Source: Escherichia phage vB_EcoM_PHB05. Taken from it: a stretch of 64,000 nt of DNA. Position numbers and translations under genes: made by a program. This document shows positions 32,922 through 51,383 of this stretch, piece after piece (position 1 is the stretch's first letter; each line of letters begins with the position of its first letter). The notes under the pieces were generated by a model. It was not told where the DNA came from and ran no database searches. It saw only the letters and a program-made list of their open reading frames with translations. The stretch lies in sequence record NC_052652.1; one strand, given 5' to 3'.

Positions 32922-33536
32922 TTAAATCTTAAATTCTTCGTTGTTAAACGAATCCAGTGTACGTACTTCTGGTTCTTTGGGAATGAAAACGTCTTTTACA
33001 AAGCGGAACATAGGGAAACGTTCTGCCATTTTACGGACGTGTGCTTCTTTACCTGTGTATCGGTGATTAATAGTGCAAATATTAGTCTTCAATGCAAAGT
33101 CAAAATCTGGATGATATACATAATTTTGACCATCCCAGTAACACAGGCAAATAGCTACGTCAAAGTTCCATACGATTTCACTGCGTACACCCTCTTCCAT
33201 GATCATAAAGTTAAACTTAAGATCTTTATAGTATGCTTCAAATACCCATTTCAAATGTGGTAGTTCGGCATAAGTGTGTTCTGTTTGCTTAGTAAGTTGT
33301 TTAACATTACGTGCACCAACACCCAACATCAAAAATTTCTCTACCAGTACGGTTGTATTGTGGTTAGGCATACGCAAGTAAATGTCAATATCTTGCGCAG
33401 GTGTTTCTAATCGCCAGTCGCGTACAGCGCCGCCAGCTACAATTGCAAACGGATCTACCAGTTGGCACATACGTAATACTTCTAAAGCGCGTACTTTTTG
33501 ATCTTCAATATTCATATTTTCTCCTATCGTGTCCAC
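32922..33536 (-). CDS. Nucleotidyltransferase-fold protein (CCA-enzyme/poly(A) polymerase head-domain-like)
   Basis: Motif FAIVAGGAVRDWRLE...DIDIY matches GGxVRD...DxD signature of class II tRNA nucleotidyltransferase heads. Confidence 0.45.
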   Translation of the reverse strand: MDTIGENMNIEDQKVRALEVLRMCQLVDPFAIVAGGAVRDWRLETPAQDIDIYLRMPNHNTTVLVEKFLMLGVGARNVKQLTKQTEHTYAELPHLKWVFEAYYKDLKFNFMIMEEGVRSEIVWNFDVAICLCYWDGQNYVYHPDFDFALKTNICTINHRYTGKEAHVRKMAERFPMFRFVKDVFIPKEPEVRTLDSFNNEEFKI

Positions 33537-34120
33537 TCTTTATGTTGTTCTACATGCTCAAGCATTTCATTATACAGTGCTTTAAGATGTGGAACAACTC
33601 TTTCATCTTCAGTTTCAAAGAATTTTGTAAGCTGTTCTGCTTTAGCTTTCAACCAGCAAAGATGCGCTTCAATTTCAGTATTAAAACGCCCCAGCGTTTT
33701 CATGCGACCGTCTACTTTTATATTGGCTTTGTATTTATTACGATCTTTTTCGTAACTACAGCCTACCATAGTTCCATGAGATCTTTTACTTACTCTATAA
33801 GCTAAGAACTTATTAAGATCTCCTGTTACTAAAAGACAGGTATCGGGAGAGTAAACCCTCCCTCCTATAATATCTTTATCAAGTTCTAAGTTTTCCCAGT
33901 TTTCCCAAGTTTGCAACCAGGAGTAGAAATTTGAGAACAGTTTCCATTCTTCACAAACCGTCACCCCCTTATAACAAGGATCACGTTCTTGTTGGCAAGG
34001 GGAGTAACACCTCCCCAACATAGCCATCCATTTCATATAATGCGGCGTTAGTTTCTTACTACCAGGTAGCGTACTCTCGCCTTGCAAATCATTAATACCT
34101 TCACCATATACGGTAAGCAT
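33524..34120 (-). CDS. Homing-endonuclease-like protein (AP2-type DNA-binding region)
   Basis: 198 aa; Cys-rich N-terminal half and AP2-like segment YKANIKVDGRMKTLGRFNTEIEAHLCW; freestanding between replication genes. Confidence 0.35.
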   Translation of the reverse strand: MLTVYGEGINDLQGESTLPGSKKLTPHYMKWMAMLGRCYSPCQQERDPCYKGVTVCEEWKLFSNFYSWLQTWENWENLELDKDIIGGRVYSPDTCLLVTGDLNKFLAYRVSKRSHGTMVGCSYEKDRNKYKANIKVDGRMKTLGRFNTEIEAHLCWLKAKAEQLTKFFETEDERVVPHLKALYNEMLEHVEQHKEWTR

Positions 34121-34147: not shown

Positions 34148-36727
34148 TCAGTGACAACTGGCCCATGAGTTACCAACATCGTAACCAGCAGTGAGAGGTA
34201 CATTAAGATTGTAATACTCACCAGCTTTATTAACAGCGATAGATGCTAATTCTCCAGCACGACTGTAGGCTGTAAACCAACCACCTTTCGGAGATTCATG
34301 TACGTTAGCCCAAATCTTGCCAGTACGTTTCTCTTCCTCTTCTTTCCAGGCGTTAACTTTATCCAAACATTCTTTATCAATTTTCTTTTGTTCTTCTGGA
34401 TCATCAACTTGAGTCCAACCTAAAGATTCTTTAGAGAACCATTTAAAATGAACCAGATCACGAGTTACTTCAAGCTGTGCTTCATCGTGATATGCAATCA
34501 TTTGTTGAACGAATGACTTATTTTTCCAGTCATCAACAAAAAAGTCAACAGCTAATCCTTCTTCTTCGATAAGATCGTCGTAGATAACCATTGCTCTTTT
34601 TGCACAAATAACACCACCACTCTGGAACAGAGAGTTAAGTATTGCGTGTGCAGATCGTGTAGGTACTTTCCTACCATCAATACCCAGAATGTATTTCTTA
34701 CCTGTTTTAACCCAGAAATCATGCAGACGTTCTTTAAGAAGTGCAAGAGGTTTTGCAGCTTCCCAGAAAGCATCGTATACAAGCTGTCCTGTATACATAT
34801 CACTACCAATAGTTTTTGCTACTTTTGCAGCTTGAGCACCATAAGTAATACCATACTTAACAGATTTAGCAGGGCTTCGTTCAAACTTACGACCAATAGT
34901 ATCAGAAATACGTCGAGCCATCATTGTATGAACATCATTAGGTTTTTCCAACAACAGAGCATTACAATATTCGTGTGGTTCCTGCTCGTACCGCCAACAG
35001 TAGTGTGATTCTATTTTTGCCTCAAGAGAATCAAAGTCATAACCAATTTGGAAGTATTTTGGAACTTCTACACCAAATAAGTTACGCATTTCATATCCGT
35101 ACAGAGATGTTACACGTGGGATATTTGCTACTAACCTATGTTTCATACGAGACGTAGCTGCATCACACGTTGCAGCAGGAGTTGGTATACGACCATCAGC
35201 CCTTACTGCCGCCAGATAACCTTTATCGTAATCCTCTTCATCTTCTTCCCAATCAGCGCCACCCCCTAGAATAGAGTTTCTACGATGTTTATACGTAAGA
35301 TACTGCACAATCTGCGTAGCATAAGGAAACTTTTCACCTAGTGCTTCCAAGTTAGGACAAATATCCTTCTCTTGCCCTTTTGTAAAGGAAGGGTTAGTAA
35401 GCACTTTAACACCACGACCTTTAGCTTTAGCAATACGATCTCTTAGTTTCCATTCCAAAGTTTCTGGTGTGCACTCCAGATGATCACATCTGTCCTGGCA
35501 GAAGTTAGATGCTAATGTTTGATCAACATAGTCACGAATAGCTTTCTCCATTTGTGCTTCATCTTTCTTAATCTTAGTGCCAGATTTAAGAGTGATATCT
35601 TTATCTTTATATTCAGATGGACTCCAACCTAAACCAACTAACCAATTTTTAATATGTGTAGTGTCGTCTAAAGTAGCAGGCACTGTAGGATCACAAATAG
35701 GTTCTTCTGCTGGAATAGGTAGTTTAAACTCTTTACCTAATGCAAATAACCACCAACCATCTTCTTTTTGTACAAGTTCACCAGAATGTTTCTCTGCAAA
35801 CTTTATCATGTTACTTGAAGGCTCACCATTCTTTTTAAACTGGAGTTTAGGTGGAATGAATGATTTCAAATAACCTTTAGTAGCAGGTTTAGGAGGTAGC
35901 ACAGGTTCTGCCTCTAAACGACATGCTTCCATTCGAGCATCCAGATCACGAATATTATCTTCTGCTTGTTTCATATTGAAAGCAAAGCCACGGTGCTCTT
36001 GACGTGTAATAATATCAGCTACACGTTGTTCTAAGTTAAATGGTTCAGACCACTTATTATAATCACCCCACTCTTCCATCAAATAACGGAACACTGCGGT
36101 GTTAGCTTTGTTATCGTAAATACAGTAATACAGCATATCTGCTGCAAATGTTCTAAATCTTTCAGTTTCAGGAATGTTTTTTCTAAAATCAATTTTAACA
36201 TCCCCTCCAGCTTTCTTAGATAACTCTGCCAGACTATGACCACCGAAGCGATCAGGGTTTAGTGTCTTACTTAAGATCATAGTATCACAAATTTCAATGT
36301 TACTATTACCCCAAGTATTGTACTTAATACTGTAGTTGAGTTTAAAAAATAATTTAATTGCCAGTAAGTCGAAGTTAATGATGTTGTGTCCAACTACTTT
36401 GGTAATTTTATAGTTTGAATTACCTTTAAATTTACCTGTTCCATTTACAAAATCAGGAAAATCTTTAAGAGGGAAATGGGTATATTCTAAATGCTCATAT
36501 TCCTCCAGTCGGTATTCATACTTTCCGTCAGTCTCAATATACGGACGACCATCGAAAAGATATTTATCACCATCATGGAAAGCAATAATCTCTCCAGTAT
36601 CATGACTTTCACACACAATACAGTGCATTGCAAAACTATCTTTTAAACGATATGGACTTGCCAAGTAATCTACACTTTCGTCATTAAGCAAGTTGTTACT
36701 TTCAATGTCGAAAGTAAAAGCTCCCAT
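34148..36727 (-). CDS. DNA polymerase, family A (T7-like), with 3'-5' exonuclease domain
   Basis: 859 aa; N-terminal FDIE exonuclease motif; motif B-like KYGITYG and motif C YHDE. Confidence 0.85.
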   Translation of the reverse strand: MGAFTFDIESNNLLNDESVDYLASPYRLKDSFAMHCIVCESHDTGEIIAFHDGDKYLFDGRPYIETDGKYEYRLEEYEHLEYTHFPLKDFPDFVNGTGKFKGNSNYKITKVVGHNIINFDLLAIKLFFKLNYSIKYNTWGNSNIEICDTMILSKTLNPDRFGGHSLAELSKKAGGDVKIDFRKNIPETERFRTFAADMLYYCIYDNKANTAVFRYLMEEWGDYNKWSEPFNLEQRVADIITRQEHRGFAFNMKQAEDNIRDLDARMEACRLEAEPVLPPKPATKGYLKSFIPPKLQFKKNGEPSSNMIKFAEKHSGELVQKEDGWWLFALGKEFKLPIPAEEPICDPTVPATLDDTTHIKNWLVGLGWSPSEYKDKDITLKSGTKIKKDEAQMEKAIRDYVDQTLASNFCQDRCDHLECTPETLEWKLRDRIAKAKGRGVKVLTNPSFTKGQEKDICPNLEALGEKFPYATQIVQYLTYKHRRNSILGGGADWEEDEEDYDKGYLAAVRADGRIPTPAATCDAATSRMKHRLVANIPRVTSLYGYEMRNLFGVEVPKYFQIGYDFDSLEAKIESHYCWRYEQEPHEYCNALLLEKPNDVHTMMARRISDTIGRKFERSPAKSVKYGITYGAQAAKVAKTIGSDMYTGQLVYDAFWEAAKPLALLKERLHDFWVKTGKKYILGIDGRKVPTRSAHAILNSLFQSGGVICAKRAMVIYDDLIEEEGLAVDFFVDDWKNKSFVQQMIAYHDEAQLEVTRDLVHFKWFSKESLGWTQVDDPEEQKKIDKECLDKVNAWKEEEEKRTGKIWANVHESPKGGWFTAYSRAGELASIAVNKAGEYYNLNVPLTAGYDVGNSWASCH

Positions 36728-36794: not shown

Positions 36795-36814
36795 AAAGGG
36801 GCTTTCGCCCCTTC
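36795..36814 (-). terminator. Stem-loop aggggc-tttc-gcccct (reverse complement identical to hairpin at 25436)
   Basis: Perfect 6-bp stem between minus-strand genes. Confidence 0.35.
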
Positions 36815-37223: not shown

Positions 37224-38996
37224 TTAATAAGAACCATCAGGAATATTCTCTGGGTTACTTGTGTATTGATCGTAATCGTGAAGTGTCGCTGTTTTAATCT
37301 CATAGAAGAAACTACCTGCTGCACCAGTCTCTGAGAACTCACGGTTCTTTAGGATGTAGCAATATGTGCGGTTACGTTCCATAGGATCTTCAGCTTGTTT
37401 ATCACGCTCCAGCGCAATTGTGATACCAGCACCTTTAGCAAGGAAGCTACTACCCATTGCATCATCTTCTACAATATGTTCATTACTATTGTTAGAAGAC
37501 TTTTTAACGTGTGAAATTACAACAATGGTAATTGCGTACTCTTTCATAATGCGTTTGAGCCACGTCGCAAGTTCCTCTTGTTGTGACACGTCCATACCAG
37601 AAAGCAAGTCAGAATAAGGGTCGATAACAAGAATGGTTACTCCGAAATAAATAATCATTTCCAGAACCTTCTCTTTAATCACATCTACGTTAGCTCCACG
37701 ATCATCACAAACATAGAAACGTGGTGTTCCATCTTCTCGTTCGTAAAAATCACGAATCTTTTCTTCATTATCTTTTAAAATCTTTTCCTTCTCTTCTTTT
37801 GTTTTACGGTGAAGAGGGATGTGCAAGAATGAAGACAATAAGTTACGAGAATACTTCTTATACGTTGCCTCCAAAGATAAAATACCAAGAGTATGTTCTG
37901 GGTGTGCAAGAATAATGTGCTTTGTAATCTCGTTAACCAACAGTGTTTTACCGATACTTGTTTTTGCAAGTATAACAGTAATTTCTTCTTCTACCAAGCC
38001 TCCACCTAACATATTAGAAGCAACACGCATGAATGGAGGAAGGGTGATCATTTTAGCTTCCAGGCATTCCAAGGCTGCTTCATACAGTACGTTAGAAGCA
38101 TAAACACCAGCAGGTGTGTACAGTTTAGCTTTGAAAAAACGATCAAGAAAGTGATCAATTTTTCCTTCTACTAGTGCCTGGTTAGGATCTTTAACATCCG
38201 TTAGTTCCATCACATAAACTTTATTACGTGGTAAGATTTTAACACATTTCTCAACTGCTGCACGTCCAGCTTCATCATTATCCATACACAGAACAATCTT
38301 TTTAAATTGATCTAAAAATTTATAACGATGTTGAAGCTGCTTATGCAGAGATGTTTCGCCACAAGTACCAGATACTACAGCAGGAACAGGATATTTACCG
38401 CCCTTGTTATAATCTTTTAGCATCTGTGTTGCAGCCAGCATATCGTGTTCACCACCAACGATTAGAATAGTACCGCTGTGGTTACGATATTTAAACTCCC
38501 CAAAAAGATCACAATCCTTTCCTGTTTCACCAATAGGATGTGAAAAATCTTTTGGATCGATACGTTGTTTATACCCAGCAATATTGTAATCTTTAGTTGT
38601 AGGGTATAATGTTGAAATTACTTCGCCAGTAGCTTCATCGTACATATAGCGTACACCGAAAGGTTTAGAGATATCTTCACGAATACCGCGATAACCTTTT
38701 GGATTAGTTCCAGTGCTGGCTTTTAGCTTATCATGTACTTCTGGATTAAACTCACTACCCAAGATATCCTCCTCTTCAATTTCTTCGCCGTGTGCATTTA
38801 ACCATTTTTGATCAGGGATAGTAAAGCCACAAGAAAAACAATGTGCGCCTCGATGGTCTTCATCGGCATCTAAGCCATATACCATCAAATTGTTTTGTGA
38901 TCGATCACGCCCTCCTTTCATACAACGAGGACACCCAGTATGTCCTTCTTGACTTAGGTCAATGTTATACCCATATTTATTTACAACATAAGACAC
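37224..38996 (-). CDS. DNA primase-helicase (T7 gp4-like)
   Basis: 590 aa; N-terminal Cys4 zinc ribbon (CPRC...CFSC), central TOPRIM-like region, C-terminal P-loop helicase region. Confidence 0.8.
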   Translation of the reverse strand: MSYVVNKYGYNIDLSQEGHTGCPRCMKGGRDRSQNNLMVYGLDADEDHRGAHCFSCGFTIPDQKWLNAHGEEIEEEDILGSEFNPEVHDKLKASTGTNPKGYRGIREDISKPFGVRYMYDEATGEVISTLYPTTKDYNIAGYKQRIDPKDFSHPIGETGKDCDLFGEFKYRNHSGTILIVGGEHDMLAATQMLKDYNKGGKYPVPAVVSGTCGETSLHKQLQHRYKFLDQFKKIVLCMDNDEAGRAAVEKCVKILPRNKVYVMELTDVKDPNQALVEGKIDHFLDRFFKAKLYTPAGVYASNVLYEAALECLEAKMITLPPFMRVASNMLGGGLVEEEITVILAKTSIGKTLLVNEITKHIILAHPEHTLGILSLEATYKKYSRNLLSSFLHIPLHRKTKEEKEKILKDNEEKIRDFYEREDGTPRFYVCDDRGANVDVIKEKVLEMIIYFGVTILVIDPYSDLLSGMDVSQQEELATWLKRIMKEYAITIVVISHVKKSSNNSNEHIVEDDAMGSSFLAKGAGITIALERDKQAEDPMERNRTYCYILKNREFSETGAAGSFFYEIKTATLHDYDQYTSNPENIPDGSY

Positions 38997-39008
38997 ATGA
39001 TTCTCCTA

Positions 39009-39278
39009 CTAAAATGATTCGTTTGTCTCCATAATATATTGCATTTCCAAATCTTCCATATGTTTCTTAAATTGGTAAACAATTTCCGATGGGGAAATAT
39101 CTATATCAAAAAGTTCTTTTGTACCAGAATAGAACCTAATACCATCAACAATAAGGCCACCATAATAATCCCAATCACTTTCTCGTGAAAAAGGATTAGG
39201 TTCTTCATAATAGTAATCTACTTCAACAATAATAGGTTCTTTATTATCTTGTTTATACTCAAAATCAAAAGTGTTCAT
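39009..39278 (-). CDS. Hypothetical protein
   Basis: 89-aa ORF. Confidence 0.3.
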   Translation of the reverse strand: MNTFDFEYKQDNKEPIIVEVDYYYEEPNPFSRESDWDYYGGLIVDGIRFYSGTKELFDIDISPSEIVYQFKKHMEDLEMQYIMETNESF

Positions 39279-40222
39279 TATAAATCCTCGATAAGCAGTC
39301 TGCGGGTTTCATTTAAATCATCAATATTGTAGTTATCTCTTACATACTTAGCAAGAGCTAATCCTTTCTCAATACAAACATCAGGAGATTCGATTAAGTA
39401 TTCTACAATATCTTTCCACTCTTTAACTGAATCAGCAAAGAAGATTAGATCTTTAAATTCTTCAGTATAGTAGTTCTCTCGTGGAGAACAAACGAGTGGC
39501 AAACCTTTAGCACCAGCCTCAAGAATTTTTAAATTACTTTTGGCATTATTAAAATGATTATTTACTAATGGAGCTATGGAGATTTGATGACCATCGTATG
39601 CTTCCATATAACACTCATAAGGACGAATACCTTCATAAACACAATCTGGTTGAATCTCTTCTTTAATTTGCAACCATTGAGCACTACTTAACTCTTCGTG
39701 ATCTCTACGAAATCCACATAACGTTAAATCTTTACCAAAAGTAGGAAGAATTGCTAAATCATGTTTATGTGTTTCACTTCCCGCCCAAACCAGTGGGCTT
39801 TTAGAATAACGATCTTTAGTAAGAACAAACTGCCCTTCATCAAAAGGTAGTCCGTTAGGCACAATATGTACATTATCATTGTATTGGCTTAATTCAACCT
39901 TTAATGCTGGAGTTGTTGTAGTTACAAGATCGCTTCTTTCAAGGAACCATTTTAGGTCATCTCGGATTTGATTTTCAAATAATCCTTCCAACATATGCCC
40001 TTCAGGAATAATTAAAGAATCATCCAGATCCATTACCAATTTAAACCCAAGTTGTTTAAGAGCCAGGAAACCTGGCTTTCCACGAGTTGGTACTCCATTG
40101 AACACAAAAATATTATGCTTAGGATTAATGGTCAGTTTGCGTTTATATGGCAAAATGATTCTATGAAAATCACATACACTATACCTTTCATGTCCACGTG
40201 TGTCAAGAATAATATTAGGCAT
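39278..40222 (-). CDS. Glycosyltransferase-like protein (paralog A)
   Basis: 314 aa; shares long motifs with adjacent paralog (IAPLVNNxFNNxKSNLKILEAGAKGLP), reminiscent of GT-B donor-binding region. Confidence 0.4.
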   Translation of the reverse strand: MPNIILDTRGHERYSVCDFHRIILPYKRKLTINPKHNIFVFNGVPTRGKPGFLALKQLGFKLVMDLDDSLIIPEGHMLEGLFENQIRDDLKWFLERSDLVTTTTPALKVELSQYNDNVHIVPNGLPFDEGQFVLTKDRYSKSPLVWAGSETHKHDLAILPTFGKDLTLCGFRRDHEELSSAQWLQIKEEIQPDCVYEGIRPYECYMEAYDGHQISIAPLVNNHFNNAKSNLKILEAGAKGLPLVCSPRENYYTEEFKDLIFFADSVKEWKDIVEYLIESPDVCIEKGLALAKYVRDNYNIDDLNETRRLLIEDL

Positions 40223-40233
40223 ATGGCTCCTTG

Positions 40234-41208
40234 TTAAAGACTTTCAATAACTTGACGACGCAGTTCATTGGCATCTGCAAGATTATAATTAAGACGAACG
40301 TGTTCTGCAAGCATCATACCACGATCTTCTGTGTATCTAGGGTTCCTCATTAGCTTGACAACTTCATAATGCCAAGATGCTTTAGAATCTGCATAGATAA
40401 CAGCCTTTGCATCTACCGGATTGAAGTACGGCAGCACAGGAGAACAGATAATAGGAAGACCCTTTGCACCTGCTTCCAAAATCTTCAAATTGCTTTTACA
40501 GTTGTTGAAGTCATTATCTACCAGAGGAGCAATTGCAATACTGTGACCGTCATACACAGACATATACTCACCTAAATTTTTAATAGCTGGTTTATACTGT
40601 GCATTTGGAATTTTACGTTTTACTTTAACCCACTCCGCAGTAGTTAGATACTGACTATTATTTCCAACAGGTGCAGAAGGATACACTTCATACCCTGCAA
40701 TTGTCAATAGTGTATCATCAAATGTATTAGCTACAAGAGATAAATCAGGTTCATGGCTTGCTCCTCCAGCCCAAATAATAGGCGTGTCAGAATAACGGTC
40801 TTTTGTCAAAGTAAATTGACCTTCATCGTAAGGTAGTGCGTTTCTAATAACGACAACATTACGATTTAAATGACGAATTTTGTAAGCCAGGTATTCTGTT
40901 GTTACAGTAACAACATCTGCTAACTTAATCATCTCTACAATAGTCTTTGAGTGATTAGTAAATACGCCAGCCATATAATGTTCAGGATTAAGCGAATAAA
41001 AGTCATCTAAATCAACAATAATCTTAACACCTTGTGCCTTCAGGCGTTTAACTTCGTCTGATCCACGAGAATACACTCTATTAAAAACTAAAACGTCTTT
41101 CTTAGGCTTAAACGTATTTCCCGCAAATGGCATTACAATACGATGGTAATCACAACCACTGCCTAACTTATTATCACACTTAAGTACAGGAGTATTAGGA
41201 TTTACCAT
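40234..41208 (-). CDS. Glycosyltransferase-like protein (paralog B)
   Basis: Start set to Met at 41208 (GAGGAGG RBS); aligns with start of paralog A. Confidence 0.4.
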   Translation of the reverse strand: MVNPNTPVLKCDNKLGSGCDYHRIVMPFAGNTFKPKKDVLVFNRVYSRGSDEVKRLKAQGVKIIVDLDDFYSLNPEHYMAGVFTNHSKTIVEMIKLADVVTVTTEYLAYKIRHLNRNVVVIRNALPYDEGQFTLTKDRYSDTPIIWAGGASHEPDLSLVANTFDDTLLTIAGYEVYPSAPVGNNSQYLTTAEWVKVKRKIPNAQYKPAIKNLGEYMSVYDGHSIAIAPLVDNDFNNCKSNLKILEAGAKGLPIICSPVLPYFNPVDAKAVIYADSKASWHYEVVKLMRNPRYTEDRGMMLAEHVRLNYNLADANELRRQVIESL

Positions 41209-41881
41209 ATTTTTGAGCCTCCTCATAAGAGATAAAAGTTTTACCATTGCGAAGATCCTCCAGTGATTGTTTATATTGTTCCCAGTTTACACCAATCCCC
41301 TGTTCTTTCTCTTCTTTTGACAGATTCGCAAAAGGTAAAGGATTATCTCCAAACACATCGTCAGGATGGATAAACGCCATAATTCGAATAGGACATGGTA
41401 CGCCGTGAATACCTCGGTTCAAACCTGCCAGTGGAACGCGCTGAATCCACTCTGCATCCTCATACCCATAGCCGTGGGTGTATGAGCGGAAATAGCCAGC
41501 TTTCTCAATAACTGCACGGGAATACATACCAAACTGGCACATGCCTAGTTCCCAAATAACCACTTCACCTTCAATACCTTTTACTTTATCTTTAAAGTAT
41601 TCAGGCATACCAAAGAAATCCCAGCCATTTTCCTTAGCCTGTTTTACAAAATATGTTTCCCAACCTGTCACAACCGGATAGCAATCATCATCAAAAATAA
41701 ACCAGTAATCATACCCTTCATCATAAAACTTTTTCATCAGTTCATTACGGGCATATGCAACACCTTTTCGTTCCCGATCATACTGTACAACAAAAGTAGC
41801 ATTAGGATCAGTCACAAGATAATCTTTAAGAGGACGCTTACCTACAGTAATAACACCAACACCAATTTTTGTATTTTCCAA
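41195..41881 (-). CDS. Putative glycosyltransferase (GT-A-like, DxD-type)
   Basis: 228 aa; acidic FIFDDDCYP motif and YGYEDAEW segment. Confidence 0.35.
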   Translation of the reverse strand: MENTKIGVGVITVGKRPLKDYLVTDPNATFVVQYDRERKGVAYARNELMKKFYDEGYDYWFIFDDDCYPVVTGWETYFVKQAKENGWDFFGMPEYFKDKVKGIEGEVVIWELGMCQFGMYSRAVIEKAGYFRSYTHGYGYEDAEWIQRVPLAGLNRGIHGVPCPIRIMAFIHPDDVFGDNPLPFANLSKEEKEQGIGVNWEQYKQSLEDLRNGKTFISYEEAQKYGKS

Positions 41882-41890
41882 AATAACTCC

Positions 41891-42454
41891 TTAAATAATT
41901 TTATTCATGTCTTGACAATGTAAAAGGTGTGAAACAGCTTTTCTAGGATCATCATTACCTAAACGGTATGTGTGAAATAAATATAACCCACGTAGTAAAC
42001 CTAGCCTTTTATTGTTAGCGTGTAATGCTTTAGAGAAAATTATATCAAACTGTATTGATCTTTCCTCAAAAGGGATTTCATTCCACAGACTCTTACGAAA
42101 GAGAAGAAAGAATCCTGCTAAGATAGCATCTGTAGGTACTTCCTCTATTGAGTTTCCCCATTCTAGATGTGCTCTTTTTGCAATCTCAATGTGGTGTAAT
42201 ATATTTGGATCTTCACTTCTTTCATTATTAAATAATTGATATGTTGATCCCAATCTATTACAAGATGCACCAAGAACATCAAAATCAGGATTTGAACGGA
42301 CTATTGATTCCAACCAAGCAGGTTGTTCTGGAAGAAGAAACATTGTATCAATGTCTCTTAGGCAAATCCAACTATCTTCTGGTAAGACACTTATTGTGTC
42401 ATTGATACCTTTTCCAATATCTCCAGAAAGATAGGGAGTTATGTGAAATATCAT
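41891..42454 (-). CDS. Hypothetical protein (possible additional glycosyltransferase)
   Basis: 187-aa ORF in same cluster. Confidence 0.3.
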   Translation of the reverse strand: MIFHITPYLSGDIGKGINDTISVLPEDSWICLRDIDTMFLLPEQPAWLESIVRSNPDFDVLGASCNRLGSTYQLFNNERSEDPNILHHIEIAKRAHLEWGNSIEEVPTDAILAGFFLLFRKSLWNEIPFEERSIQFDIIFSKALHANNKRLGLLRGLYLFHTYRLGNDDPRKAVSHLLHCQDMNKII

Positions 42455-42511
42455 ACTCCCTCCGTATTATTACTTTAGCATTTTTAGACTAAAAAGTCCA
42501 AATGGTTTTAC

Positions 42512-42706
42512 CTATTGATTACGTTTTGCGAGTTCCATTTGGATAGCTAAACTGTGATCTCGTGCTTCCATATACTCTTTATATGTTTCATTAAGATGAT
42601 CACGACAAACATCACGCAGTTTAATCAGTTTATCTGTAGGGATACCACTAAGATCATCCCAAGATTTTACAACTTCACCAGTATCATTGATCCCAATGGT
42701 TTTCAT
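42512..42706 (-). CDS. Hypothetical small protein
   Basis: 64-aa ORF. Confidence 0.3.
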   Translation of the reverse strand: MKTIGINDTGEVVKSWDDLSGIPTDKLIKLRDVCRDHLNETYKEYMEARDHSLAIQMELAKRNQ

Positions 42707-43202: not shown

Positions 43203-43712
43203 TTAGCGATAGAATTGATGTTCTTTGTAGCGGTACACTAGAACCATATCTTTTTCCCAGTGTGCTCTTATTGTAGATTTTTTAAAGTATAATGCTCCTT
43301 TTGTAATATCTAATGCAATTCGTAGTTCTGGAAAATGGTTATCGAGATAAAGTAGACGTTCTGCTATAGCCTTAGCTTCCTTCCACTTATCGTGTTCCAT
43401 AACGTTGAATGTCTTCGTGTAAGAGAATTGTCCTTTCTGAAACAAAACTTCTTTTATAGTATCAGGGAAATATGAATCTCTAGCCCTATTCAATACTACA
43501 TTACCAACAGCAGACATACCGCGCTTTCCTTGATTACGACTTTCTGCATAGATTGCACAAGCTAATAGATTTTCTTTACTATCACGCTTTGTACACTTGT
43601 GAACTACTTTAGCAGTTTTTACGTTTGCAGCTTCGGCTTGCGCCACAACAGGTGTAAATGTAAAAGCAGTTAAGGATAGTAACGCAATTGCGACAAAGGT
43701 TTTTATTGACAA
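43203..43712 (-). CDS. Secreted cell-wall-hydrolase-like protein (SleB/Hydrolase_2-like)
   Basis: N-terminal signal peptide ending AQA; motif CAIYAESRNQG...VGNVVLNR resembles SleB-family hydrolases. Confidence 0.45.
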   Translation of the reverse strand: MSIKTFVAIALLSLTAFTFTPVVAQAEAANVKTAKVVHKCTKRDSKENLLACAIYAESRNQGKRGMSAVGNVVLNRARDSYFPDTIKEVLFQKGQFSYTKTFNVMEHDKWKEAKAIAERLLYLDNHFPELRIALDITKGALYFKKSTIRAHWEKDMVLVYRYKEHQFYR

Positions 43713-43805: not shown

Positions 43806-44408
43806 TTAGATATTGTAAACCTTTGTATGAGTTACTACACCATCTTCTACAAAATCAATACGTTCTTGATCCGTAACTAGTGCAGACAACACTTTAAATT
43901 TAATTTTTACACGCTCAAAAGCTGGTTGACCATCTTTAAGATAATTATGTTCAGTTGTCACTGTCTTGTTTACAAAATCAACTTTTGCTTTACCGTTTTC
44001 GCGTAAGTGGAATGTTTTTCCTGCTTTATACACAATTTCAACATTACCTTCGAGAGTAATTCCTTCAAAAAGTTCACCCTCTTCTTCATTTTCTTCACTT
44101 TTGAACAGACGACGAAATTCTTCCATATCAAGATAAACAACACCTTCAGAATAATTATCAGTAAGATATGTCTTACCACCCATTAGCCCGAAATATTGCC
44201 AGATTGCCGAATAAACATCACTAGATGATCCAAGGGTTTCTCTGAGTTTAGTTCCACGAATTACTTCATAAACTTCAAAATTGAAACCAGCCTGCAAAGC
44301 ATCAAACAGCACATCACTAACTTCTAAAGCATAATCTTGATTGTGTTCAATATCTACAAGAAAATTGCCGCTACGAATAAGTTTTTGACCTTCTAAAGTA
44401 ATACCCAT
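43806..44408 (-). CDS. Hypothetical protein
   Basis: 200-aa ORF with GAGGAGAA RBS. Confidence 0.4.
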   Translation of the reverse strand: MGITLEGQKLIRSGNFLVDIEHNQDYALEVSDVLFDALQAGFNFEVYEVIRGTKLRETLGSSSDVYSAIWQYFGLMGGKTYLTDNYSEGVVYLDMEEFRRLFKSEENEEEGELFEGITLEGNVEIVYKAGKTFHLRENGKAKVDFVNKTVTTEHNYLKDGQPAFERVKIKFKVLSALVTDQERIDFVEDGVVTHTKVYNI

Positions 44409-44435: not shown

Positions 44436-44451
44436 GCGCCCCGAAGGGCGC
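44436..44451 (-). terminator. Stem-loop gcgccc-cgaa-gggcgc downstream of terD-like gene
   Basis: Perfect 6-bp stem followed (minus strand) by AT-rich tract. Confidence 0.4.
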
Positions 44452-44472: not shown

Positions 44473-45069
44473 TTACTCGAACCAATCGTCGCCAGCGCCG
44501 AACGCTTTAACTACATCGTAAATGTCAAGCCCAGCTTTACCCACACCATACGCTTTCAGTTTCCATTCACTATCTTCCCGTACCAGGGAGGCAACGTGGC
44601 AAATGGTGTTACCTGCAAGTTCTGGAGCCAAGAAGTCAAAGTCCAGCAGTTCAACATTACGTTCATCATCGAAGATTTTAAGGAAACCTTCGGTAGCGTG
44701 ACCAAGGCGTTTCTTACCCGTTTCGTCATCAATAGTAATTACAAATGCAATTTCCTGTGCTTCAGCAGAGATATTATCCAGTGTAACATCAATCTGCTCC
44801 ATCTGTCCTACACCGTCACGAACATCTTCACCTGCAAAAGTAGAACGTTCAGGATCAAATTTCTGCGCGTAGCACACCAGGTGACGAGGAGACAACAGTT
44901 CCGGCAGACCAGATGCATTGTGTCGGCAAATCAGAGCACTAACATCCAGATCCAGTTTTTCGTTAGATTTCCAAGAGAATTCCAGACGAATGCGTTTCAG
45001 TGCTGGTGCAATCTTTTTCAGAGAAACTTTTTCACTAGAACCTTTTTTCAGGGAAATTTTCTGAGTCAT
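44473..45069 (-). CDS. terD: TerD-domain protein (tellurite-resistance/stress protein family)
   Basis: 198 aa; N-terminal ISLKKGSSEKVSLKK (cf. TerD VSLSKGGNVSLSK), DLDVSA, acidic central block, C-terminal SEWKLKAYGVGKAG, all as in TerD/TerE. Confidence 0.75.
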   Translation of the reverse strand: MTQKISLKKGSSEKVSLKKIAPALKRIRLEFSWKSNEKLDLDVSALICRHNASGLPELLSPRHLVCYAQKFDPERSTFAGEDVRDGVGQMEQIDVTLDNISAEAQEIAFVITIDDETGKKRLGHATEGFLKIFDDERNVELLDFDFLAPELAGNTICHVASLVREDSEWKLKAYGVGKAGLDIYDVVKAFGAGDDWFE

Positions 45070-45141
45070 AATTTATTATCTCCTTTGTTGTTAATTTACG
45101 TTGTCTATTTTACTAATCTTTTCTACAAAGTCAAGCGTTTT

Positions 45142-45936
45142 TTACGCTTTTGCTCCGAATTTTTTAACCCACTCACCAAACTCTTCGGATAACAGCTTAT
45201 CGTAAAGTTCTTCATCAGACAAGGACAAATCTGCAATACCGATAAAATCAACATTATCGTATTCTTTTGCCAAGTCTTTCAGGAATTTAAAGTTTGCATT
45301 ACCTACACCAACCATAAACCAGTAAACAGGCGTATTGCGGTGTTTGTTCAGTAAGCTACGTACTGCTGAAGTATCCATGTTCTCCCCGTCAGTTTGGAAG
45401 AAAATCATTGCAGGAGTACGATCAACTTGTGCATCAGTATCTACAACCTGTTCTACAACAGTACGTGTTACTTCTACAAGTTCTTTTTTACCAGTTAGTT
45501 TAGCAAGGAAACCCTTAGCCGGGACTTCTTCATACTCAACGACTTCGCGTGTAATATTTTTCATAGGTACACTACCGAAGTATGTATCATAGATCTCTTG
45601 CATTACTGGAGCATAAGCAGTACCACCGTTGATGCAAACATTAGACATGCAAGAGCCGACATAATCATCATACACACCAGCCGTTGCAGGAGGCAGTTCA
45701 AAAGAAGAACTATTGAAAGCCCACATGTCAATCTGTGCATTATCATCAAACTTCATACCAAACGGCAGCAGTTTACCTACAAAATCACTAACAGTGCCAT
45801 CACGATACAGCTCACACATACTACCCGAAATATCTAAGGCGCTACCGACACGAAGAACAACATCGTTAATCTTTTTCTTACGCAGAGATACAGTAAGAGT
45901 TTCTTGACGTTTTTTAAGACTGATTTTATTGGACAT
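45142..45936 (-). CDS. von Willebrand factor A (vWA) domain protein with TerD-like N-terminal peptide
   Basis: 264 aa; MIDAS-like DISGSM and downstream T/D residues; N-terminus ISLKKRQETLTVSLRKKK mimics TerD start. Confidence 0.5.
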   Translation of the reverse strand: MSNKISLKKRQETLTVSLRKKKINDVVLRVGSALDISGSMCELYRDGTVSDFVGKLLPFGMKFDDNAQIDMWAFNSSSFELPPATAGVYDDYVGSCMSNVCINGGTAYAPVMQEIYDTYFGSVPMKNITREVVEYEEVPAKGFLAKLTGKKELVEVTRTVVEQVVDTDAQVDRTPAMIFFQTDGENMDTSAVRSLLNKHRNTPVYWFMVGVGNANFKFLKDLAKEYDNVDFIGIADLSLSDEELYDKLLSEEFGEWVKKFGAKA

Positions 45937-45937
45937 A

Positions 45938-46207
45938 TTATTTCTCCTTTCTGAGTGTAATGTTAGTAACTTCTAAATCCACTTCTACTACTTCTGTATC
46001 ATATAAAATACAGTTAAGTTGACCTCTTTGTGAACCGTTCAGACACATTGCTTGGTTTGTATTAACCTTAATAAACACTAAGTTTCTGAACGTATCTAAA
46101 CCAGATTCTTGATAGGCAACATAATATACAAATGTATCACCTGCGTCAAGTTCTCCAAAACATTTAGGTTCATCTGATTTGTCGTCTTTGATATTAAATT
46201 TAAGCAC
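45938..46207 (-). CDS. Hypothetical protein
   Basis: 89-aa ORF. Confidence 0.3.
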   Translation of the reverse strand: MLKFNIKDDKSDEPKCFGELDAGDTFVYYVAYQESGLDTFRNLVFIKVNTNQAMCLNGSQRGQLNCILYDTEVVEVDLEVTNITLRKEK

Positions 46208-46763
46208 TGTCTTCTCCTTTACCTGCTCTCCAGCCTAAATAGAAAGCCTCTCTGGTGATCTTTTGCAACTCGTTTAAAGAGATAGTTACAACTAAATCAT
46301 CTTCAATTTCTAGCTTTGAGTCTTCTTCTGTCTCAATGCAAGTATTATGCACTTTGTGGTAAGGATTGTCAACACGTTTAAATTTATTATTTTCAGTGCT
46401 GAAGAAGCAATCTGGATCTTCTTCTCCATCACCCCAGCCCTGGTTAGGGTCTTCTTCAGATCTTTCTGTTGGGATCTCCCCTGTAAAGTGCTCTTCTAAT
46501 ACCATAGCGATACCATCCCCAGGATCGGAAGAGAACATCAAATTACAAACTTCTTCCCAAGGCATAGACCACTTGAATCTTTTACGATTGCCATGTTTAT
46601 CTTCTTCGTTAGAGAAAACACTACCATAGCTATCATAATTGCCATACATCTCTTCAACAACTTTACCACCTTTCAAAAGAAATAGGTAGCAAGGAGAGCC
46701 ATCGAAAGAGGTAGAAAGAGCAGCATTACCAGACTCTTTGCACAAGAAACTAAAACACCCCAT
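46200..46763 (-). CDS. Hypothetical acidic protein
   Basis: 187-aa ORF. Confidence 0.35.
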   Translation of the reverse strand: MGCFSFLCKESGNAALSTSFDGSPCYLFLLKGGKVVEEMYGNYDSYGSVFSNEEDKHGNRKRFKWSMPWEEVCNLMFSSDPGDGIAMVLEEHFTGEIPTERSEEDPNQGWGDGEEDPDCFFSTENNKFKRVDNPYHKVHNTCIETEEDSKLEIEDDLVVTISLNELQKITREAFYLGWRAGKGEDSA

Positions 46764-46963
46764 TATACACCAGCCTTAAGATCAACTAAAGCCAAAGTTG
46801 TTTCAGAATGTGTTTGCTCGTCTACAGGTGCAGTCATATGATAATACAAAAAGTCTTCGGCATCATACCAATCTGACTCTTGACCTTGTTTCCAACCATC
46901 AATGAAAGCATCTTCCATAATGGTTTGTAATTCTTCACGAGTTAAGTGAATATCTTTATTCAT
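46763..46963 (-). CDS. Hypothetical small protein
   Basis: 66-aa ORF. Confidence 0.3.
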   Translation of the reverse strand: MNKDIHLTREELQTIMEDAFIDGWKQGQESDWYDAEDFLYYHMTAPVDEQTHSETTLALVDLKAGV

Positions 46964-47196
46964 TACACATTCTCCTCTTTTACCAATTCCATCGTTGAAC
47001 TATCAAAACCATCTTTAGAAGAATAGGTATAGACAGAACGTAGTTCTCGCAGGACAGTAAACACATTAGGATCATCTAACCAAGCATCCTGGAGGAGAAC
47101 ATAACGATCTTCATTGTCGTACTGGACAGCGATCATAGAACCAGACAGTTTGTAAATTTTAATATTCATAATATATTTCTCCTTAAAGTAGACCAC
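46963..47196 (-). CDS. Hypothetical small protein
   Basis: 77-aa ORF. Confidence 0.3.
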   Translation of the reverse strand: MVYFKEKYIMNIKIYKLSGSMIAVQYDNEDRYVLLQDAWLDDPNVFTVLRELRSVYTYSSKDGFDSSTMELVKEENV

Positions 47197-48286
47197 GTTT
47201 AACAGTTTGAATCATACCATCTTCAAGAGATTGCACTTCTTGAATGTAATCAATACGAGCAGCACGGGCTTCAGTGTTGATCCGATTAGTTTCTTCCAAC
47301 ATTTTAACTAAGTTTTCTTGATCGCGACGTAATGTTTCAATATCCAATACTTGACGATTAGCAAGTTGCGTAGCTTCAATTTGGTTTTGTGCAGCCAGAT
47401 CACTACCCATTGCAATAGCAGCATTAAACTCATTCAGTACATTGTTCTGTGTATCGGCTGCTTTCTTCTGGCGTAGACTTTCAATATACATAGAAAAGTT
47501 TGCAGAGTAAGCAGGAATAACATTATTCACAATATTACGGGCTGATCGCATCAAACTTGCAGATACTTTCTGCATACTTTGTACACGTGGCCCCATCTGA
47601 ACACACAGTAAACGCAAGGCTTTCAGGTCTGCAATACGAATTTCAAGCAGATCCATAGTATCACGAGTACGTTGACGCTCTTCTACTTCATTTTCAGGTA
47701 GTGTATTAAGGCGAACTTCTTCTTTTTCATAAGTAGCTGTTAGAAGCTCTATATCCCTGTTTAAGCTAAGAGCATATTTTGCAATAGCCTCTTCTAAACG
47801 TTGCAGATATCGTAAAGAATCTTCTTCTTTTTTCAAGTCTGTTTGGAGTGTCTTTACCAAACCTTCAATACGATTATTGATGGTGTCAAATTCTCCAAAC
47901 AAATCTTCTTTCATACCTAATACTTTCTTAACTAACTTACCTAAGCCTTTAGATTGTTTAATAGAGTTAGGATCAAGTTGCTTTGCTTGCTTAATAAGTG
48001 CAGTTAAACGTTCACTCATTTCATCTCCCTGAGATGAACGCTGGTGTTTAAGCACTTCAGCATTAAGGTTACGAAGAGTAAGTCCTGCATCAGCACCAAC
48101 TTGTTCAATCTCTTCACGAGACATTGGAGGCAGCATTTGTACAGGTCGTGCAACAGCAGGGGCATATACAGGGCTTGCATCCATAGCACTTGGAGCAAAC
48201 AAAGACTTACTTTTTTCTGTTGTTGCCGTGAATACACTCATTTCAGACGGTTTGCTTTTTACGGCACTGATAAAAGGACTGGACAT
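47183..48286 (-). CDS. TelA-like (toxic anion resistance) coiled-coil protein (putative)
   Basis: 367 aa, strongly alpha-helical, size and context match TelA/KlaB family; no single diagnostic motif recognised. Confidence 0.4.
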   Translation of the reverse strand: MSSPFISAVKSKPSEMSVFTATTEKSKSLFAPSAMDASPVYAPAVARPVQMLPPMSREEIEQVGADAGLTLRNLNAEVLKHQRSSQGDEMSERLTALIKQAKQLDPNSIKQSKGLGKLVKKVLGMKEDLFGEFDTINNRIEGLVKTLQTDLKKEEDSLRYLQRLEEAIAKYALSLNRDIELLTATYEKEEVRLNTLPENEVEERQRTRDTMDLLEIRIADLKALRLLCVQMGPRVQSMQKVSASLMRSARNIVNNVIPAYSANFSMYIESLRQKKAADTQNNVLNEFNAAIAMGSDLAAQNQIEATQLANRQVLDIETLRRDQENLVKMLEETNRINTEARAARIDYIQEVQSLEDGMIQTVKRGLL

Positions 48287-48354
48287 TCAATTTCCTCCAT
48301 ATTCTTTAGTAGATGGTGATACCTCTGTACCACCATCATAACACAAATTAAGTA

Positions 48355-49206
48355 TTAAACAAACATATCTAAATAATTTGTAGTAATAAATGCTCCATCT
48401 GCTTCCAGATTAACATAACCAGTAGCATTAGTGGTTAAGAAATCCAGATCGAAGGACTCTTTAACACCCCGTACCTCAACACGAGAGATATCGAATACAG
48501 GTAGTGTAACAGCCTCTTCGTGCAATACCGTACCTTTGTAGGTTGCCTTAATGATAAACTTGATATTACCCGTTCCCGCATCATACAAAACACTTTCAAA
48601 CCCTTTGAGAGTATACTTATCACCAGAAGTGAAGTGCAAAGTTGCTTTGTTTACAGTACGTTTTTTACGAGGAGTTCCTTTCACACGTTTATGATCACTA
48701 CGTTTTTTGTATTTAGGAGTGAATACAAACGATACACTCTCAAGAAAGGTATCAACATCAAGGATTTCAATATCCTCTGTTGCAGCAAATTTTGAAGTCG
48801 TTGCATCAAAATGCTTTCCCCTGCGATCATACATAAAGATATCAAACCGATCTTCTAAATCAAACAAATTATGTATCTTAATTTCAGAATGCTTGCACAT
48901 TGCAGCAACCTTAAACTCTTCAAAACGTGGGTGTTCTACAAGCTCTTCAAGTTTTACACCAAAGACAGTATATTGTTTCGAAGTTTTTTCTGGCGTTGGC
49001 ATTACAGAAGCATAATCACCGATTGCGCTTTTAAAGCAAAATTGTTCTTGACCTGTATTTTTACCAACGAATTTACAGTATTCGTCATCGTGCATACTTT
49101 CTTTGGTAGTACCAACAAACTCAAAACCATCCTTATTCTTCTCAAGAATTTCTTGATTAAAGATCCAACCTTCCAGGCGATACACTTTACCAACTTCTAG
49201 TTTCAT
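48355..49206 (-). CDS. Hypothetical protein
   Basis: 283-aa ORF. Confidence 0.4.
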   Translation of the reverse strand: MKLEVGKVYRLEGWIFNQEILEKNKDGFEFVGTTKESMHDDEYCKFVGKNTGQEQFCFKSAIGDYASVMPTPEKTSKQYTVFGVKLEELVEHPRFEEFKVAAMCKHSEIKIHNLFDLEDRFDIFMYDRRGKHFDATTSKFAATEDIEILDVDTFLESVSFVFTPKYKKRSDHKRVKGTPRKKRTVNKATLHFTSGDKYTLKGFESVLYDAGTGNIKFIIKATYKGTVLHEEAVTLPVFDISRVEVRGVKESFDLDFLTTNATGYVNLEADGAFITTNYLDMFV

Positions 49207-49241
49207 CTGTTCCTCCTTCTTATTTAATCTGTATTAAATTA

Positions 49242-49847
49242 TTAACGGCGACGTGAGCTACTAAAACTACGTTTCGACGAAGAATAACTTTTCGAAGACT
49301 TACTATAAGAGCTAATAGGGCTTGAGTAAGACTTACGAGCAGAGTAATCACTATTCACTTTTGTTGTTGATGGGCGTGAATACGTTTGTACACTTTGCTG
49401 CTTAATTGTGTTTTGTTTAGTTGTTGTATATGTATTCCCTTGTTTATCATAAAAACTATGCTTTTGTGTTGTATATGATTTACTGTTAGTTGTAGGAGCA
49501 GCGTTGTTATTAATAATTGTTGTATTGCTACCGCCATCTCTATAACCACCACCGCCACTATTACCACTCAACATATGACCAAGAAGCATACCTGTAGCAA
49601 ATTCACCTACACCAGAAGAACCACTACCGCCTCCTTGCACAACAACTGTTGAAGGCTGTGCAGGTGCTGCTTGAACAACTTGAGGTGCAGGTTGATTTAC
49701 ATATTGTTCATCTACCATCTGATTTGGTGTTTGTTGGTAACGTTGGTTTTGTACATTTTCAGAATCATCACAACCTACCAGCAATGCACTGCCTAAAACA
49801 ACTGCAACAATAAAAGATTTAATGTTTTTCATTTGTAACCCTCTCAT
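49242..49847 (-). CDS. Lipoprotein with low-complexity Ser/Thr/Gln-rich mature region
   Basis: Signal peptide plus lipobox LLVGC; rest is low-complexity. Confidence 0.5.
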   Translation of the reverse strand: MRGLQMKNIKSFIVAVVLGSALLVGCDDSENVQNQRYQQTPNQMVDEQYVNQPAPQVVQAAPAQPSTVVVQGGGSGSSGVGEFATGMLLGHMLSGNSGGGGYRDGGSNTTIINNNAAPTTNSKSYTTQKHSFYDKQGNTYTTTKQNTIKQQSVQTYSRPSTTKVNSDYSARKSYSSPISSYSKSSKSYSSSKRSFSSSRRR

Positions 49848-50025: not shown

Positions 50026-50040
50026 CAGATCACCTCAACA

Positions 50041-50058
50041 AAGCCCCCGAAGGGGCTT
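50041..50058 (-). terminator. Stem-loop agcccc-cgaa-ggggct (reverse complement identical to hairpin at 27446)
   Basis: Perfect 6-bp stem just downstream of terC-like gene. Confidence 0.4.
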
Positions 50059-50064
50059 AATGAA

Positions 50065-51042: not shown

Positions 51043-51060
51043 TCTTTTCTCCTCTTTAAT

Positions 51061-51368: not shown

Positions 51369-51383
51369 ATAAAAAATCCTCTC

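Follow-up and report, generated by a model that had tools for sequence, protein, structure and literature searches.

INTRODUCTION

Where viruses combine their own sugar-nucleotide pathway with several soluble glycosyltransferases (GTs), as do PBCV-1, mimivirus (for its fibrils), and mycobacteriophages (in GT/methyltransferase sets), the solved target is the virion, and rhamnose is a typical sugar of these virion glycosylation systems. Here, we examine a cluster of four GT genes in a 64,000-nucleotide stretch of Escherichia phage vB_EcoM_PHB05 (sequence record NC_052652.1; "the window" denotes this whole stretch), a lytic myovirus of the genus Justusliebigvirus (subfamily Stephanstirmvirinae; the phi92-like coliphages) with a genome of ~146 kb. 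Like the virion glycosylation systems, it has soluble viral GTs, phi92-like phages encode their own pathway for deoxythymidine diphosphate rhamnose (dTDP-rhamnose), and homologs of three of the GT families lie beside head genes and sugar methyltransferases in other phages; unlike in those systems, the GTs sit in a replication block, the host is Gram negative, and a virion glycan is so far a prediction. We know of no phage virion glycosylation in Gram-negative hosts.

Other described systems compare less closely. T4 DNA glucosyltransferases and TET-associated glycosyltransferases (TAGT) are likewise phage encoded and expressed alongside replication genes, and one gene product of the cluster (GT #3) shares, at a subthreshold score, the N-terminal nucleotide-binding/DxD region of TAGT, but no hydroxymethyl-pyrimidine or TET/JBP partner was found here (in the annotation or among ten candidates), and close relatives of the phage are restriction sensitive. 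The Gtr system of O-antigen glucosylation (GtrABC) and TarP of a Staphylococcus aureus prophage also rely on phage-borne GTs, and TarP is among the fold matches of another product of the cluster (GT #4); both, however, belong to temperate phages, and Gtr uses membrane proteins (the flippase GtrA, the bactoprenol GT GtrB, and GtrC), whereas the present phage is lytic and its four GTs have no membrane segment.

The original prediction for this cluster, made from the DNA alone, proposed glycosylation of phage DNA or of host surface polysaccharide. Phage-protein glycosylation, which was absent from those options, accords with the comparative contexts no less well, and we tentatively prefer the reading that the cluster may encode a module of soluble enzymes that assemble an oligosaccharide on a protein encoded by the phage, probably one of the virion. 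We rank such a protein first because homologs lie near head genes, because the system is self-contained, and because of the viral systems already solved; the acceptor is most likely not DNA.

RESULTS

Four GT genes in a probable operon

The cluster and its immediate surroundings are as follows (aa, amino acids; nt, nucleotides; ORF, open reading frame).

41891..42454, minus strand: GT #4, first gene of the cluster, 187 aa, predicted GT-A fold, DxD at D34/D36
41195..41881, minus strand: GT #3, 228 aa, predicted GT-A type, GT2/GT7-like, DDD motif, TTG start preceded by GGAG
40234..41208, minus strand: GT-B2, 324 aa, predicted GT4-like GT-B (337 aa from the longest-ORF/GenBank start at 41247)
39278..40222, minus strand: GT-B1, 314 aa, predicted GT4-like GT-B, the derived paralog
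39009..39278, minus strand: small acidic ORF, 89 aa, PHROG 4240, TAATG overlap with GT-B1
37224..38996, minus strand: primase-helicase, Pfam Toprim and DnaB_C, directly downstream of the 89-aa ORF
34148..36727, minus strand: DNA polymerase A, downstream of the primase-helicase
42455..42511: intergenic gap of 57 nt upstream of GT #4, the sole sizeable gap within the block

The ORF table agrees with the original prediction on four consecutive GT genes at these coordinates, all on the minus strand from 42454 to 39278, as well as on their setting in a replication block, with the primase-helicase and DNA polymerase A directly following on the same strand. The GT genes are separated by 9 to 12 nt or overlap (the start of GT-B2 overlaps the stop of GT #3 by 14 nt), and a GGAG-type ribosome-binding site precedes each; with such junctions, the four genes probably form one operon. 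For GT-B2, position 41208, the start given in the original prediction, is better than the longer GenBank start at 41247 because the lengths of homologs (315 to 324 aa) and a GAGGAGG located 8 to 9 nt upstream fit it better. The gap at 42455 to 42511 may contain a phage promoter; a sigma-70 promoter scan returned nothing at ≥9/12 within this gap and no clear promoter overall. A hydropathy scan of all four GTs found no transmembrane segment (highest 19-residue value, ≤1.2). Isoelectric point and hydropathy were discarded as clues to DNA or membrane binding, being uninformative (the Dcm methylase is acidic too).

The 89-aa ORF was considered as a partner or acceptor of the GTs and rejected, its homologs adjoining the primase in GT-less Vequintavirinae (PVP-SE1). 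It is a member of the operon, translationally coupled to GT-B1, that is not specific to the GT cluster, and it is syntenic in Klebsiella phages KP13-16 and FKP3 and in a metagenomic contig (L004).

Two perfect palindromic GC-rich hairpins occur in intergenic gaps, at 36796 to 36813 (AAGGGGC-TTTC-GCCCCTT) and 44436 to 44451 (GCGCCC-CGAA-GGGCGC). They flank the block from a 200-aa ORF (43806 to 44408) to the ORF past the primase and could be bidirectional terminators or RNA-processing sites delimiting the GT-containing transcription unit.

Two unrelated GT-A enzymes

GT #4 (PHROG 14179, E = 5.5e-113) has no match in Pfam, and none of the four GTs has one in NCBIfam. Across 30 sequences, residues D34, D36, N66, R67, H88, E131, D137, H161, Y163, and R164 are invariant. 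Its AlphaFold2 (AF2) model (predicted local distance difference test score [pLDDT], 95) was matched by Foldseek to the GT-A enzymes LH3 (GT domain), LARGE1, Listeria RmlT, COLGALT1, and TarP (E ~1e-4, probability 1.0), with AvpGT, solved in complex with Ara-A, also among the matches. Judged by this model, GT #4 is a real GT-A glycosyltransferase with its DxD at D34/D36, and PHROG 14179, the invariant D34xD36, the high pLDDT, and the Foldseek probability together raise it above the "candidate" status that it had been given.

Listeria RmlT, at ranks 4 to 6 among the fold matches (E ~3e-4), is a GT-A rhamnosyltransferase of wall teichoic acid that depends on dTDP-rhamnose, the donor made by the phage Rml pathway. 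The likeness is distant, however (template modeling [TM] score, ~0.47; 15% identity), RmlT is a 600-aa multidomain protein, and, in contrast to the dependence of RmlT on dTDP-rhamnose, KP13-16 has a GT #4 ortholog without rml genes.

GT #3 (PHROG 2456, E = 3.6e-79) has two invariant motifs, FDDD (D64 to D66) and YGxED (Y138, G139, E141, and D142), and shows no detectable relation to GT #4 at the sequence or profile level. Its best Pfam match is TAGT (PF20691; E = 1.5e-5), which at 25.5 bits is under the gathering cutoff of 27.5 and spans residues 16 to 83 only, the generic N-terminal nucleotide-binding/DxD part; it also weakly matches the PHROG of the T-even beta-glucosyl-hydroxymethylcytosine alpha-glucosyltransferase. 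GT #3 itself reaches E = 0.067 against Glyco_transf_7C and matches neither this family nor Glycos_transf_2 at E ≤ 0.001, and its class is assigned through its relatives. An exhaustive profile search recovered 1483 of these, and among the 148 that were scanned against Pfam, 67 matched Glyco_transf_7C (best E, 3.6e-11), 47 matched Glycos_transf_2 (best E, 2.1e-17), and 19 matched TAGT (none better than 1.5e-5). By this family assignment, GT #3 is predicted to be a GT2/GT7-like GT-A enzyme, and the DxD-type, GT-A-like call originally made for 41195 to 41881 stands on the invariant D64 to D66 and the family matches to GT2 and Glyco_transf_7C. Membership in TAGT was rejected in view of the subthreshold score, the GT2/GT7C-like relatives, and the failure to find TET/JBP in the annotation or among ten candidate proteins.

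A tandem pair of GT-B paralogs

GT-B1 and GT-B2 are 41% identical over 311 aa (E = 6e-83), as clear a pair of paralogs as had been claimed. In Pfam, GT-B1 scores 26.8 bits against Glyco_trans_1_2 (cutoff, 25), and GT-B2 (PHROG 7162, E = 3.7e-149) stays below the cutoff, at 14.7 to 18.1 bits for Glyco_trans_1_2/Glyco_trans_1_4; many orthologs carry a precomputed PF13524 match. The AF2 model of GT-B1, from a 40-sequence alignment, has a pLDDT of 95 and two Rossmann-type domains with an interdomain cleft. Foldseek returned 292 PDB matches at E ≤ 1e-3, the best 50 of which are all GT4-type GT-B enzymes; fold matches include BshA, GlgM, MshA, TreT, PglA, GtfC/Gtf3, SdgB, and TarM (E ~1e-9; TM scores, 0.55 to 0.66). 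Among these best 50, GtfC has the highest TM scores (0.66/0.63), the protein O-glycan transferases GtfC, Gtf3, and SdgB are all present, and small-molecule GTs also occur, tetrahydrobiopterin glucosyltransferase among them. Searches of PDB sequences with single proteins and profiles gave only weak GT4 matches, from the GT-B family profile (MshA and TreT). The fold predictions that had been suggested as a check on the GT calls thus came out as GT-A for the model of GT #4 and GT-B for that of GT-B1, and GT-B2 would share the latter fold because of its identity to GT-B1.

Both paralogs look catalytically competent because every residue invariant in the family (R21, D67, D68, N123, H152, D155, K228, S229, K232, and E235, with others) is kept in both. 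With GT4 GT-B enzymes they have in common the two-Rossmann fold, the LEAGAKGLP donor-binding segment, and the invariant E235; in contrast, they are shorter (314 to 324 versus ~370 aa), are 12 to 17% identical to any solved GT4 enzyme, and have Ala227 in place of the first Glu of the EX7E signature. A test for that signature failed, finding only the second Glu (E235), with A227 eight residues upstream of it, next to the invariant K228.

Single-copy GT-Bs are found in KP13-16 and contig L004, at 45.6 to 45.9% identity to GT-B2 and 39.6 to 40.5% to GT-B1. Because these orthologs resemble GT-B2 more, GT-B2 is the ancestral-type copy and GT-B1 a derived duplicate common to two E. coli genera.

Distribution of the cluster and of the rml pathway

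A megablast search with 39000 to 42600 matched 55 phage records, 54 of them at ≥95% identity. Closest are Escherichia phages pEC-M2929-1AR.1 and EC.P2 (99.5%), and the matches include phi92, muut, alia, and the BASEL phages EmilieFrey, PaulScherrer, and JohannJBalmer (Bas60-62). Several GenBank relatives (98 to 99.5% identical) already label the four genes "glycosyltransferase" or "putative disaccharide synthase." The superfamilies of these enzymes are ordinary ones, earlier papers touch on the genes briefly, and their cluster is not a new kind of system; no functional study of these genes was found in the searchable literature.

By tblastn, the GT-B genes occur in 141 phage records and GT #4 in 140, essentially confined to Justusliebigvirus, Phapecoctavirus, and allied phages of Klebsiella, Citrobacter, Serratia, and Salmonella. 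The few distant matches beyond Stephanstirmvirinae fall in Cellulophaga phages (GT #4) and in Streptomyces and Arthrobacter phages (GT-B). Five "Campylobacter phage" records (e.g., C3, A110a, and B15) share 98 to 99% identity with these E. coli phages or with Phapecoctavirus, and their host label is probably wrong or a sign of contamination.

The taxon profile of phage RmlD is nearly identical to that of the GTs, and RmlD is also present in the two closest relatives of the window. In EmilieFrey (98.4% identical at the GT region), RmlB, RmlA, RmlC, and RmlD are encoded at 116 to 119 kb among nucleotide-metabolism genes; the dTDP-L-rhamnose pathway of the genus thus lies ~70 kb from the GT cluster, outside the window. 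Klebsiella phage KP13-16 encodes GT #4, GT #3, and a single GT-B beside the primase-helicase, without RmlA to RmlD and without Dcm. In the 135-kb contig L004, the order is GT #4, an RmlB-like dehydratase, GT #3, one GT-B, the small ORF, the primase-helicase, and PolA, and both genomes keep the order from the GTs through the small ORF and primase-helicase to PolA. Because KP13-16 keeps the GTs without RmlA to RmlD, the core GT module predates the link to rml, and because GT-less Vequintavirinae (PVP-SE1) have the small ORF and primase, the cluster is an insertion that characterizes Stephanstirmvirinae.

In the two E. coli genera, GT-B1 and rml occur together. Joint arrival of the extra GT-B copy and rml is a weak lead that fits KP13-16 (one GT-B, no rml) and the presence of RmlD in both two-copy genera, but not Klebsiella phage FKP3, which has rml and lacks GT-B1 in an error-ridden record. 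The FKP3 cluster (PP895363.1, 46204 to 48018) consists of GT #4 and a GT-B2 ortholog split over three frames, with GT #3 and GT-B1 absent. What is annotated there as a second "glycosyltransferase" is part of GT-B2 rather than a GT-A; many other genes of this rml-carrying record are fragmented, and sequencing or assembly errors are likely.

Genomic contexts of distant homologs

Distant homologs of three of the GT families lie in multi-GT phage clusters whose other products include Methyltransf_24, DegT aminotransferase, epimerase/dehydratase, deacetylase, radical SAM, and acetyltransferase proteins. Five small phages or phage contigs, independent of one another (Cellulophaga phage phi18:2, L011, L014, L016, and Streptomyces phage KimJongPhill), have the homolog clusters among their terminase, portal, and capsid genes or just upstream of them. 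L014 joins a GT7C-like GT-A to a GT-B homolog, the same pairing as in the present phage, and the KimJongPhill cluster contains a UDP-glucose (uridine diphosphate glucose) dehydrogenase and a methyltransferase. The nearest bacterial GT-B homolog (35% identity) adjoins an intimin/invasin-type adhesin. A repertoire of sugar aminotransferases and methyltransferases points to complex glycans and is known to us from no DNA glycosylation system.

Other features of the window

Elsewhere in the window, we noted the following genes.

43203-43712, minus strand: SleB-like cell-wall hydrolase
44473-45069, minus strand: TerD
45142-45936, minus strand: vWA-TerF-like protein
47183-48286, minus strand: TelA
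50065-51042, minus strand: TerC membrane protein
51600-52433, minus strand: macrodomain protein
52309-53166, minus strand: PRTase_3/ComF-like protein
53159-53833, minus strand: HAD hydrolase
54223-55383, minus strand: AAA ATPase
30724-31455, minus strand: Dam-like N6/N4 DNA methyltransferase
32922-33536, minus strand: PolyA_pol-head-like nucleotidyltransferase (PHROG 1614)
33524-34120, minus strand: HNH endonuclease

The SleB-like hydrolase (Pfam Hydrolase_2, E = 5.8e-20) carries a Sec-type signal peptide, MSIKTFVAIALLSLTAFTFTPVVAQA, at its N terminus; the endolysin annotated in the genus is a separate protein. The hydrolase gene lies three small genes upstream of the GT cluster. The genes from TerD to the AAA ATPase make up a Ter-like cluster (44473 to 55383) just upstream of the GT genes. 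An "alx-like ter cluster" has been noted in phi92-like phages (PMC11162368), and Ter systems of jumbo phages and some related smaller tailed phages have been proposed to serve superinfection exclusion (PMC7824862). The last three genes listed lie downstream of the DNA polymerase.

A perfect tandem duplication of 590 bp (17755 to 18344 and 18345 to 18934, 100% identical) covers the 3' end of an 857-aa tail fiber/spike gene (15392 to 17965) and doubles a small downstream ORF. In JLBYU50, the closest full-length match, the matched stretch is ~600 bp shorter than the 20-kb query, as would fit one missing copy; the repeat arose by duplication very recently or is an artifact of assembly. The UvrD/Rep-type helicase ORF at 60006 to 62819 (minus strand) encodes 937 aa, versus 578 aa in EmilieFrey, and residues ~267 to 613 match Hint/Intein_splicing at 33.2 bits, just under the cutoff; the helicase probably contains an intein absent from close relatives.

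DISCUSSION

A phage protein as the proposed acceptor

In the reading that we tentatively place first, four soluble, cytoplasmic, nucleotide-sugar-dependent (Leloir) GTs would be produced from one operon: two unrelated DxD GT-A enzymes, probably inverting, and two GT4-like GT-B enzymes, probably retaining, that arose by tandem duplication. Working one after another, they would build up a short hetero-oligosaccharide, with at least one step probably using dTDP-L-rhamnose from the phage RmlABCD enzymes, a supply that would make the phage independent of the sugar repertoire of its host. The acceptor would be a phage-encoded protein, probably a virion component, and the outcome a glycan coat on the particle.

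This reading is supported by the occurrence of the GTs in ~140 Stephanstirmvirinae records with RmlD in the same taxa and by the RmlB-like dehydratase inside the L004 cluster. With hosts that include E. coli, Klebsiella, Salmonella, Serratia, and Citrobacter, an acceptor supplied by the phage is favored, and a self-contained system (own donor pathway and soluble enzymes) across several host genera points the same way. Further support comes from the homolog clusters with sugar-modifying enzymes and neighboring head genes, from the adhesin next to the nearest bacterial GT-B homolog, and from the resemblance of the GT-B1 model to the protein O-glycan transferases GtfC, Gtf3, and SdgB. Several observations weigh against it. 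No glycosylated virion protein is reported for this phage group in the searchable literature, the GT genes sit in an early/middle replication block away from structural genes, and the tail proteins encoded in the window show no convincing Ser/Thr-rich acceptor tract (the head proteins are encoded outside it). Adjacency to head genes in distant phages is circumstantial, module boundaries being common insertion sites, and the envelope-themed neighbors (the secreted SleB-like hydrolase and the Ter-like cluster) fit modification of the host envelope. KP13-16, moreover, has three GTs without rml, and rhamnose is therefore not obligatory for the core module.

Host envelope glycans

Modification of a host envelope glycan is the main rival, possible if rather doubtful. 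The GTs, with dTDP-rhamnose, would modify, on the cytoplasmic side of the inner membrane, a conserved precursor of a host glycan, belonging to the lipopolysaccharide (LPS) core, enterobacterial common antigen, the NGR glycan, or capsule, and thereby block superinfection or keep progeny from adsorbing to debris. LPS-core GTs are, like those of the cluster, soluble or peripheral GT4 and GT-A enzymes, and cell-wall glycan GTs (RmlT, TarP, TarM, and PglA) are among the fold neighbors of GT #4 and GT-B1. The upstream same-strand neighbors, a secreted SleB-like hydrolase (43203 to 43712) and the Ter-like set, suit this explanation, as do the proposals of Iyer et al. (2021) that phage Ter sets act in superinfection exclusion and that clusters of GT and nucleoside diphosphate sugar genes diversify host outer polysaccharides (PMC7824862). 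However, there is no Gtr-like protein, flippase, polymerase, or ligase, the GTs have no transmembrane or obvious amphipathic anchor, and the TerC-family protein (50065 to 51042) was the sole membrane or transport protein recognized in the gene scan covering 30 to 64 kb. The phages are strictly lytic, surface LPS would turn over slowly relative to the lytic cycle, and the distant homologs tend to lie near head genes rather than lysis or exclusion genes. The host range covers rough, smooth, and encapsulated E. coli as well as Salmonella (PMC8594841, PMC11990801), a breadth that makes an acceptor specific to one host type unlikely.

Other soluble acceptors

A different soluble acceptor, such as a host or nonstructural phage protein, RNA (e.g., a tRNA base), or a small molecule, is unlikely. 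Among small molecules, a candidate would be the nucleoside-like compound that the Ter-associated PRTase/HAD enzymes are predicted to make; a same-strand set of PRTase_3, HAD, and macrodomain genes lies ~10 kb upstream. The phage also encodes many tRNAs and tRNA-synthetase-like fragments, and the fold neighbors include BshA, MshA, TreT, GlgM, and tetrahydrobiopterin glucosyltransferase for GT-B1 and AvpGT/Ara-A for GT #4. No specific link was found, though, with about ten unrelated genes separating the PRTase/HAD genes from the GTs, and four GTs with a dedicated dTDP-rhamnose pathway would suggest an abundant, polymer-like acceptor rather than a signaling metabolite.

Phage DNA

DNA hypermodification, in which at least one GT would attach a sugar, possibly rhamnose, to a base in the phage DNA and so shield the DNA from nucleases, is the least likely of the serious acceptor options, and we consider it very unlikely. 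The idea has a history: Olsen et al. (2020) raised the possibility that hydroxymethylated bases are glycosylated with the help of the rml pathway (PMC7552041), and a later paper states "rhamnose modification" as if established (PMC10844046). In its favor, the GTs adjoin the primase-helicase and DNA polymerase, a synteny kept at ~45% protein identity, the rml genes lie amid nucleotide-metabolism genes, and GT #3 has TAGT as its best Pfam match along with the weak PHROG match to the T-even alpha-glucosyltransferase.

Other evidence weighs against it. The TAGT score is subthreshold (25.5 versus 27.5 bits), Glyco_transf_7C and GT2 dominate among the 148 relatives of GT #3, and T4 alpha- and beta-glucosyltransferases are absent from the best 50 PDB and BFVD fold matches. 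No ThyA-type hydroxymethylase is annotated or was detected, the sole thymidylate-synthase-like gene being a weak ThyX match, and TET/JBP was not found in the annotation or in ten candidate hypothetical proteins, a scan that did not extend to every small ORF. KP13-16 keeps the GTs without Dcm, and sugar aminotransferases and methyltransferases of the kind seen in the family contexts are known to us from no DNA glycosylation system. In tests with six restriction-modification systems, Maffei et al. (2021) found the near-identical Bas60-62 "exceptionally susceptible," their "putative dTDP glycosylation machinery" notwithstanding (PMC8594841), and these published data argue against bulk sugar modification of the phage DNA. 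With no ThyA, TET, or JBP found, TAGT below threshold, a GT4-like GT-B model, and restriction-sensitive relatives, the glycosylated or hypermodified DNA of the original prediction is disfavored, and the repeated literature claim of "rhamnose DNA modification" is unsupported and probably wrong. The Dam-like methyltransferase, nucleotidyltransferase, and HNH endonuclease downstream of the DNA polymerase, taken with a Dcm-like methylase and a second N6 methylase encoded elsewhere in genomes of the genus, suggest that DNA protection here relies on methylation.

Highly improbable, finally, is a variant in which the GTs and Rml enzymes would place a rhamnose-containing sugar at sparse, sequence-specific DNA sites, e.g., those marked by a phage methyltransferase: the phage has a Dcm-like C5 methyltransferase (~60 kb from the GTs in the genus), and sparse site-specific modification would evade the published restriction tests. 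If true, DNA hypermodification would gain a new chemical class, one formed with no ThyA-type hydroxymethylase and at sites to which standard restriction panels are blind.

Implications

The question raised by this cluster is what use a lytic coliphage makes of four GTs and its own rhamnose pathway, and it is tractable in the BASEL model phages Bas60-62. The phi92-like and phAPEC8-like phages rank with the BASEL-tested E. coli phages of broadest host range (PMC8594841, PMC11990801), and therapy cocktails make use of them. If the host envelope is remodeled, the activity would bear on superinfection exclusion and on cocktail design. If, as we tentatively prefer, the virions are coated with a rhamnose-containing glycan, this would be the first such system known to us in phages of Gram-negative hosts, with a bearing on immune clearance, mucus binding, and particle stability.

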